Source: Octopus vulgaris (Eukaryota). Taken from it: a stretch of DNA of 64,000 nt. Both the position numbers and the translations under genes were made by a program. Positions 61,811 through 62,304 of the stretch are shown in pieces; within the stretch, counting starts at the first letter, position 1, and each line of letters opens with the position of its first letter. The notes below the pieces were generated by a model. That model had not been told where the DNA came from and did no database searches. It was given only the letters and a program-made list of their open reading frames with translations. The stretch spans positions 78,058,001-78,122,000 of the forward strand of contig OX597830.1 of NCBI GenBank assembly GCA_951406725.2. The letters are read 5' to 3'.

Positions 61811-61822
61811 AATAAATGAGTC

Positions 61823-62136
61823 GAATAAATGAGAAGAATGGAGTCGAACGAAGATTTTAACAAAATTCCTTTACTCTCGACACATGTTTCGAAGACGGCA
61901 TACTTTTAATTCCGAAGGAATAAAGGGTGCATTTATTAATGGTGACCATGTAGGCAATCATCAAAATCTTTTGTTCGTCTTGTGGCTGAAAGAGGCTCCT
62001 TATCTTTCCTGATGAGAAGATGGCATAATGCACCTTTTATTCTTTCGGAATTAAAAGTATGCCGTCTTCGAAACATGTGTCGAGAGTAAAGGAATTTTGT
62101 TAAAATCTTCGTTAGACTCCATTCTTTCATTTATTC
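61823..62136. repeat. ~110-bp near-perfect inverted repeat (inverted partial pseudo-LTR-like)
   Basis: 61823-61933 is reverse-complementary to 62027-62136; ~93-nt spacer; preceded by long (TA)n. Confidence 0.92.
61997..62093 (+). ncRNA. Type I hammerhead ribozyme
   Basis: Stem I tcctt..ctttc/gagag..aagga; CTGATGA 62009-62015; 11-bp stem II gaagatggcat/atgccgtcttc; GAAA 62070-62073; short stem III AC-atgt-GT; GTC cleavage triplet 62079-62081. Confidence 0.8.
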
Positions 62137-62272
62137 ATATAAAAAACACACAAATTTCCACACAAGAGTTTCTACCCTTGACAGGTCGCTTCAACCGTGT
62201 TTTCTGACGTGAATTTGCTACCCAAGTATCGGTTAAACGAATTTTCCGTGCTAGGATAATTCATTCACCTAC

Positions 62273-62304
<32 letters not shown>

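Follow-up and report, generated by a model that had tools for sequence, protein, structure and literature searches.

A hammerhead ribozyme probably derived from a Penelope-like terminal repeat, and its inverted stub, in Octopus vulgaris

In a 64,000-nucleotide stretch of Octopus vulgaris DNA (the window), a type I hammerhead ribozyme motif on the + strand is preceded by an inverted, truncated copy of its own sequence. The explanation that fits best, to which we assign a probability of about 0.7, is that the hammerhead belongs to the terminal repeat of a Penelope-like element (PLE) and that an inverted stub, formed on integration, silences it in read-through RNA. A high-copy, hammerhead-bearing PLE terminal repeat would have been inserted once into a (TA)n microsatellite, and membership of the unit among the PLEs is probable from its likeness to published insertions. 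The preliminary description, made from the sequence alone, had taken the unit for a non-autonomous retroelement; the Penelope-type hammerhead and the retroelement-derived, ORF-less unit hold, and in place of a self-propagating element a 5′-truncated insertion of a PLE terminal repeat with an inverted partner fits.

The hammerhead motif and the layout of the unit

All core elements that had been placed at 61997-62093 (+) are present, with CUGANGA, GAAA and NUH arranged around helices I-III and the motif ending in helix I, as in type I hammerheads. Stem I has an upper helix of 5 bp (62004-62008/62082-62086) and, across a 2x2 internal loop, a lower helix (61997-62001/62089-62093). The CUGAUGA core box (62009-62015, +) is followed directly by G10.1, with no bulged nucleotide, and by a long helix II (62016-62069, +), which comprises 12 proximal bp including one G.U (62016-62027/62058-62069; 11 bp had been counted before), a 6-nt bulge and a predicted distal hairpin (62034-62057), this distal part being variable in the family. 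The remaining segment (62070-62081, +) holds GAAA (62070-62073), a 2-bp helix III (A62073-U62080 and C62074-G62079) closed by a tetraloop that reads AUGU in the locus copy versus AUAU in the family majority, and the GUC site, in which C17 is 62081. The motif is most likely of a genuine self-cutting type, with cleavage predicted 3′ of C62081.

The minimum free energy (MFE) fold of 61995-62094 contains stems I and II (z -3.70, equalled by 0 of 200 shuffles), and forcing stem III into it costs 2.0 kcal/mol. A strict type I descriptor, with thresholds chosen after the motif was seen (stem I at least 5, stem II at least 8), has one match in the window and none in 200 dinucleotide-shuffled 64-kb windows; the loosest descriptor (at least 4 and at least 4) has two matches in the window and none in the shuffled ones. 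The Rfam search that had been proposed as a check returned no hammerhead at gathering score over the whole window, and none of the seven matches at E≤10 on 541 nt was a hammerhead, probably because the long helix II exceeds the Rfam hammerhead models. The Rfam match to MIR2646 was rejected, as it reflects the long hairpin only (64 versus a gathering score of 245 bits). Relatives were also considered among pattern matches in metagenomes (5), prokaryote genomes (5) and viral contigs (0), but 0 of the 10 had both helices or BLAST similarity, and they are thus regarded as chance matches; neither the prokaryote genomes nor the viral contigs yielded any match to a family-specific pattern.

The inverted copy of about 110 bp that had been described just upstream, lacking CUGAUGA, is confirmed as 61823-61933 (-), an inverted, 5′-truncated copy of 62027-62136, from which it differs by 3 substitutions and a 1-nt indel. 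This arm carries the 3′ half of stem II, GAAA, stem III, GUC and the 3′ strand of stem I, and the - strand of the element is without any CUGANGA. The (TA)n flanks, likewise part of that description, are found on both sides, as a left tract at about 61681-61809 (limits approximate), the probable integration target, and a right tract at 62274-62300. Between the left tract and the arm lies a 13-nt near-duplicate of the arm's 3′ end (61810-61822, -), which may reflect slippage or re-priming. The unpaired centre of the fold-back (61934-61996, +) corresponds to the 5′ portion of the forward copy; the match to family contigs begins at about 61940, with loose ends before 61969 and 61977, and a short near-palindrome (61939-61949) adjoins the junction. 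The forward copy alone has a 3′ extension of 137 nt (62137-62273, +), which belongs to the same repeat family, shows no significant fold on either strand (z -0.95 and -1.46) and starts with ATATAA (62137-62142), where other family copies also enter (TA)n. The left arm ends beside this ATATAA, adds the 13-nt near-duplicate and then passes into (TA)n.

As had been claimed, the element is devoid of long reading frames, with no ORF of at least 120 aa and no Pfam family in three frames, and no RT or GIY-YIG gene, such as adjoins the terminal repeat in full-length EN+ PLE copies, was found among the 145 of 256 window peptides (at least 45 aa) that were searched. The absence of tRNA genes from the window (0) argues against a tRNA-derived head. 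A bacterial promoter scan was at chance level and is irrelevant to this host.

With its inverted arms of 110 bp and a TA at either end, the unit looks similar to a MITE of the Tc1/mariner type, and Tc1 and mariner fragments are present in the window. It is nevertheless improbable that the unit is a MITE or another fold-back DNA transposon flanked by terminal inverted repeats, or that it arose as an artefact of assembly, with the hammerhead incidental in either case: the arms are not terminal, since the right copy continues for 137 nt as the same family, conservation in the family is shaped by the ribozyme, and family contigs suggest that most copies have no inversion or have other breakpoints. 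The arms also differ at 4 places, so neither is a mirror artefact of the other.

The repeat family in public sequencing runs

The segment 61934-62273 was compared with contigs of public sequencing runs at 80% likeness, using 4 of 24 listed runs, which come from four studies: X1 and X9 from organism A, X3 from organism B and X17 from organism D, X9 being RNA by guess only. Family contigs were matched in all of them (2051 in X1, 1391 in X3, 447 in X17 and 73 in X9), and most are less than 99% alike to 61934-62273, which indicates a large and diverse repeat family. Summed depth was not used as a copy number, nor the fall in depth before 61970 as a boundary. Family coverage spans about 300-330 nt, in short contigs of which none crosses the whole stretch. 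The segment 62198-62233 is among the best-covered parts though it has no predicted structure, and between 62160 and 62190 the copies of the family differ by alternative segments, with insertions and loose ends in 4 of 4 runs, suggesting subfamilies. The hammerhead family may already stand in the Octopus vulgaris repeat library of PMC13282606 or in a supplement of PMC4209133.

The preliminary description had made its case depend in part on conservation of the core among genomic copies, and in 40 of the 80 rows of the variant table 16 places vary within 61997-62093, none of them coinciding with any of the 16 core positions (hypergeometric P 0.042). Eight of these 40 rows fall in upper stem I and proximal stem II, and 7 of the 8 are compatible with pairing. 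Five keep the pair singly (62004 C>T, 62020 A>G, 62021 T>C, 62063 C>T and 62084 G>A), 62022 G>T and 62063 C>A are the reciprocal halves of a single exchange of G-C for U-A, and 62086 G>A requires a rarer partner change at 62004, the table giving no linkage of partner changes on one molecule. The common 62000 T>C would break a pair of lower stem I and has no partner among the rows listed, and the distal hairpin of helix II varies without clear compensation. With a core free of variants among the rows listed and stem rows that are largely compatible with pairing, the ribozyme core and the proximal stems are apparently maintained in the family, and the ribozyme appears to have been kept functional.

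The palindrome that had been pointed out in stem III, ACAUGU (62073-62078), turned out to be off register for an active dimer, which needs A62073 to U62080. In register, the palindrome of the locus copy is CAUGUG, which self-pairs with two G.U; in all four runs, however, 62077 is A in 58-68% of depth, giving CAUAUG as the majority palindrome. The active dimer helix of the locus copy is calculated at -7.4 kcal/mol against -6.8 for the competing ACAUGU helix, and its unconstrained dimer MFE is the inactive register, while A at 62077 brings the active dimer helix to -8.4 kcal/mol and abolishes the competitor. On these calculations, the family looks designed for dimer cleavage through a self-complementary helix III, and the locus copy, with G at 62077, may be a weaker ribozyme variant. 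PLE hammerheads have been described as dimer-cleaving in passages of PMC4209133 and of a review (PMC6765202), the latter referring to dimer cleavage as reported by Lunse et al. The two helix III strings have no match in one supplement of PMC8557442.

The ends of family copies also recur. Seven X17 contigs turn to (TA)n behind 62141, near the end used by the left arm, so that this end recurs. One X9 contig shows a change of strand at a different joint (62072/62183). Neither of the two joints listed is a tandem junction, going back from the 3′ to the 5′ end, the contigs being short.

Integration, fold-back and ribozyme folding

The 471-nt unit folds as a single hairpin (-218.1 kcal/mol, z -18.7), and the idea that fold-back and ribozyme exclude each other is borne out, as the hammerhead carries a penalty of 81.9 kcal/mol relative to the fold-back in the whole unit 61805-62273. 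In a series of 5′ ends, the penalty falls from 79.7 kcal/mol at 61805 to 12.3 kcal/mol at 61910 and to 1.4-4.2 kcal/mol from 61920 onward. Read-through RNA of the + strand is therefore predicted to make a 110-bp duplex and to be unable to cleave, and the ribozyme would be able to fold only in RNA starting after about 61920.

The preliminary description had seen in this a switch, with cleavage set by the start site of the transcript or by A-to-I editing of the duplex. The two folds are indeed exclusive and the penalty varies with the 5′ end, as a dependence on start site demands; the same dependence follows, however, from any such inversion, with no sign of selection, and the other inversion seen, in X9, has different breakpoints. 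Release by editing was rejected in simulation. When the 72 As of the arms were edited at random, inosine being treated either as G or as non-pairing, 0 of 324 simulated molecules combined intact core As with a penalty below 3 kcal/mol; the lowest penalty reached, 11.5 kcal/mol, took the editing of all 72 As with inosine non-pairing and destroyed GAAA as well, which sits within the fold-back duplex. The differences between the arms, too, are devoid of an editing signature. They lie at 62035, 62043 and 62114, and two of them read A>G on the + strand in the left arm, but at all three it is the left arm that agrees with the family majority (61-97%, 79-99% and 98-100% of depth, respectively), so that the right copy is the changed one and a scar of A-to-I editing in the left arm was rejected. 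A literature search for natural hammerheads under the control of editing found none by title or start of abstract. A functional switch is accordingly the least probable of the explanations considered, and a very remote one.

At 62055, 62063, 62077 and 62104 the two arms agree on a letter other than the family majority, as would be expected of a single template. In the preferred reading, that of a PLE insertion, an RT/GIY-YIG protein of a PLE would cut the (TA)n target and copy one RNA from both target ends. The first cDNA would start at the family 3′ end (62273) and stop near 61940, the second would start internally at the ATATAA beside 62137 and stop within stem II (62027), and the two would be joined head to head. 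The hammerhead would belong to the RNA of the parent element, where it would cleave after C62081 as a dimer, and the fold-back at the locus would be a by-product of integration.

Most parts of this scheme have counterparts in published systems. The locus shows the head-to-head, inverted, 5′-truncated copy and the microsatellite target, with (TA)n on both sides, of EN+ PLEs, and no target-site duplication is readable within the (TA)n. According to passages of the respective papers, PLE insertions often carry an inverted 5′-truncated copy at their 5′ end (PMC8557442; PMC8969392), have a 30-40 bp tail at one end and hammerheads in the terminal repeat, and in some clades are biased to microsatellites or (TA)n (PMC8557442), while head-to-head is the most frequent arrangement of rotifer PLEs, with palindromes at the junction (PMC3846280). 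A purified PLE protein is described as cleaving and extending both target strands and starting internally at two sites, with hammerhead cleavage unneeded in vitro (text portions of PMC11167929). The unit is thus like EN+ PLE insertions, as portrayed in parts of PMC8557442 and PMC3846280, in its inverted partial copy, one-sided extension, hammerhead, (TA)n and junction palindrome, and unlike them in having no ORF and an extension of 137 nt instead of 30-40 bp (as given in PMC8557442). Naiads share the targeting of (TA)n and occur in Octopus, but are without canonical hammerheads. Recently active Penelope families are mentioned for Octopus vulgaris in part of PMC13282606.

The ribozyme itself resembles the metazoan PLE hammerheads, as outlined in part of PMC4209133, in type I topology, a 5-bp helix I, a poorly defined loop 1, a palindromic helix III and sequence heterogeneity within the family. 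It also has the G10.1-C11.1 pair of minimal PLE hammerheads (G62016-C62069), but differs from their partial descriptions in the lack of a bulged nucleotide after the core box and in a far longer helix II.

A less likely alternative is that the family is a retrozyme-like non-autonomous unit of about 330 nt (roughly 61945-62273), which would spread by means of PLE proteins and hammerhead-released linear or circular RNAs, the locus being a monomer with an inverted stub. The coverage of about 300-330 nt lies within the 150-450 bp of animal retrozymes (350-390 bp in mussels; passages of PMC7229834), a 2-bp helix III with a tetraloop is nearer to retrozyme hammerheads than to the minimal PLE ones, and no ORF follows the ribozyme. 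As far as the text drawn on in PMC7229834 goes, non-LTR retrozymes share with the unit the ORF-less length of about 300-330 nt, the type I hammerhead, the 2-bp helix III with tetraloop, low G+C and large family size, and for animal retrozymes descent from PLE terminal repeats has been argued, and they occur as monomers as well (part of 10.64898/2026.07.22.740005). Non-LTR retrozymes are characterised by hammerhead-bearing units in head-to-tail tandem and by accumulation as circular RNA. The locus is, however, a single unit, no second copy following it in tandem within the window, and neither of the two joints listed leads from a 3′ end to a 5′ end, which weighs little in short contigs. Retrozyme RNAs are, moreover, described as highly self-paired (passages of PMC7229834), whereas self-pairing of 61934-62273 is weak (z -1.49, with 11 of 100 shuffles as good, for a linear fold of the locus copy only). 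The inverted partner and the (TA)n ends point to PLE-type integration rather than to a retrozyme.

Window context and meaning

The window is A+T-rich, animal-type DNA (G+C 0.28-0.42), 27% of it tandem repeat, with an assembly gap (a run of 100 N) at 27640-27739. It also contains five copies of a second family, a PLE-type minimal hammerhead with a bulged A, a 4-bp helix II and, in most copies, GAAA followed by CG, which has no likeness to the family of 61997-62093 beyond the core. The copy at 5945-6150 (-; core at 6075) has an intact core with U at position 17; those at 10782-10971 (+; core at 10848), 29816-29946 (-; core near 29900) and 50333-50417 (+; core at 50339) have one core change each, and that at 12065-12159 (-; core at 12153) has two. 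On its 3′ side each copy runs out into TA repeats, and a local inversion was found beside 0 of the 5. With five such remnants, hammerhead-bearing stubs are common in the window.

Other mobile DNA is present as fragments. A 314-aa open frame at 54102-55046 (-) has a weak zf-RVT match (E 0.0004, below cut-off) and resembles the C-terminal region of a non-LTR retrotransposon, presumably of the restriction-like endonuclease type. A Tc1-type transposase remnant in two frames (HTH_Tnp_Tc3_2 and DDE_3) lies at 26088-27038 (+), a weak Mos1-type HTH fragment at 51824-52135 (-) and a Pif1 helicase 2B fragment, which would be Helitron-like, at 40568-40804 (+). Three further inverted pairs, 48034-48211/49119-49296 (94% alike), 30782-30868/31849-31935 (99%) and 11180-11293/11604-11725 (78%), contain no hammerhead core detectable by the scans.

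Published work already covers both the hammerheads of PLE terminal repeats and the inverted truncated partners, and the locus is not a new RNA switch; PMC4209133 (2014) notes pairs of hammerheads in opposite orientation, 100-700 bp apart, as well as single motifs that stem from truncated PLEs. No dedicated study for the host lineage came up in the literature searches, and the giant squid genome paper goes no further than a count of 235 Hammerhead_1 matches. More speculatively, and with the odds well against it, the family could be a retrozyme or non-autonomous PLE derivative of octopod-like type, about 330 nt long, very abundant and hitherto undescribed, whose hammerhead has an unusually long helix II. 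Such a family would integrate into (TA)n from two alternative 3′ ends, its frequent fold-backs would seed long dsRNA in a heavily A-to-I-editing host, and it would then be the first such ribozyme family characterised in the lineage. The single locus matters little in itself; its modest value is as a way into a large hammerhead family that seems to have stayed functional. A family in which two 3′ ends recur and inversions are many would lend itself to testing PLE priming from both target strands.
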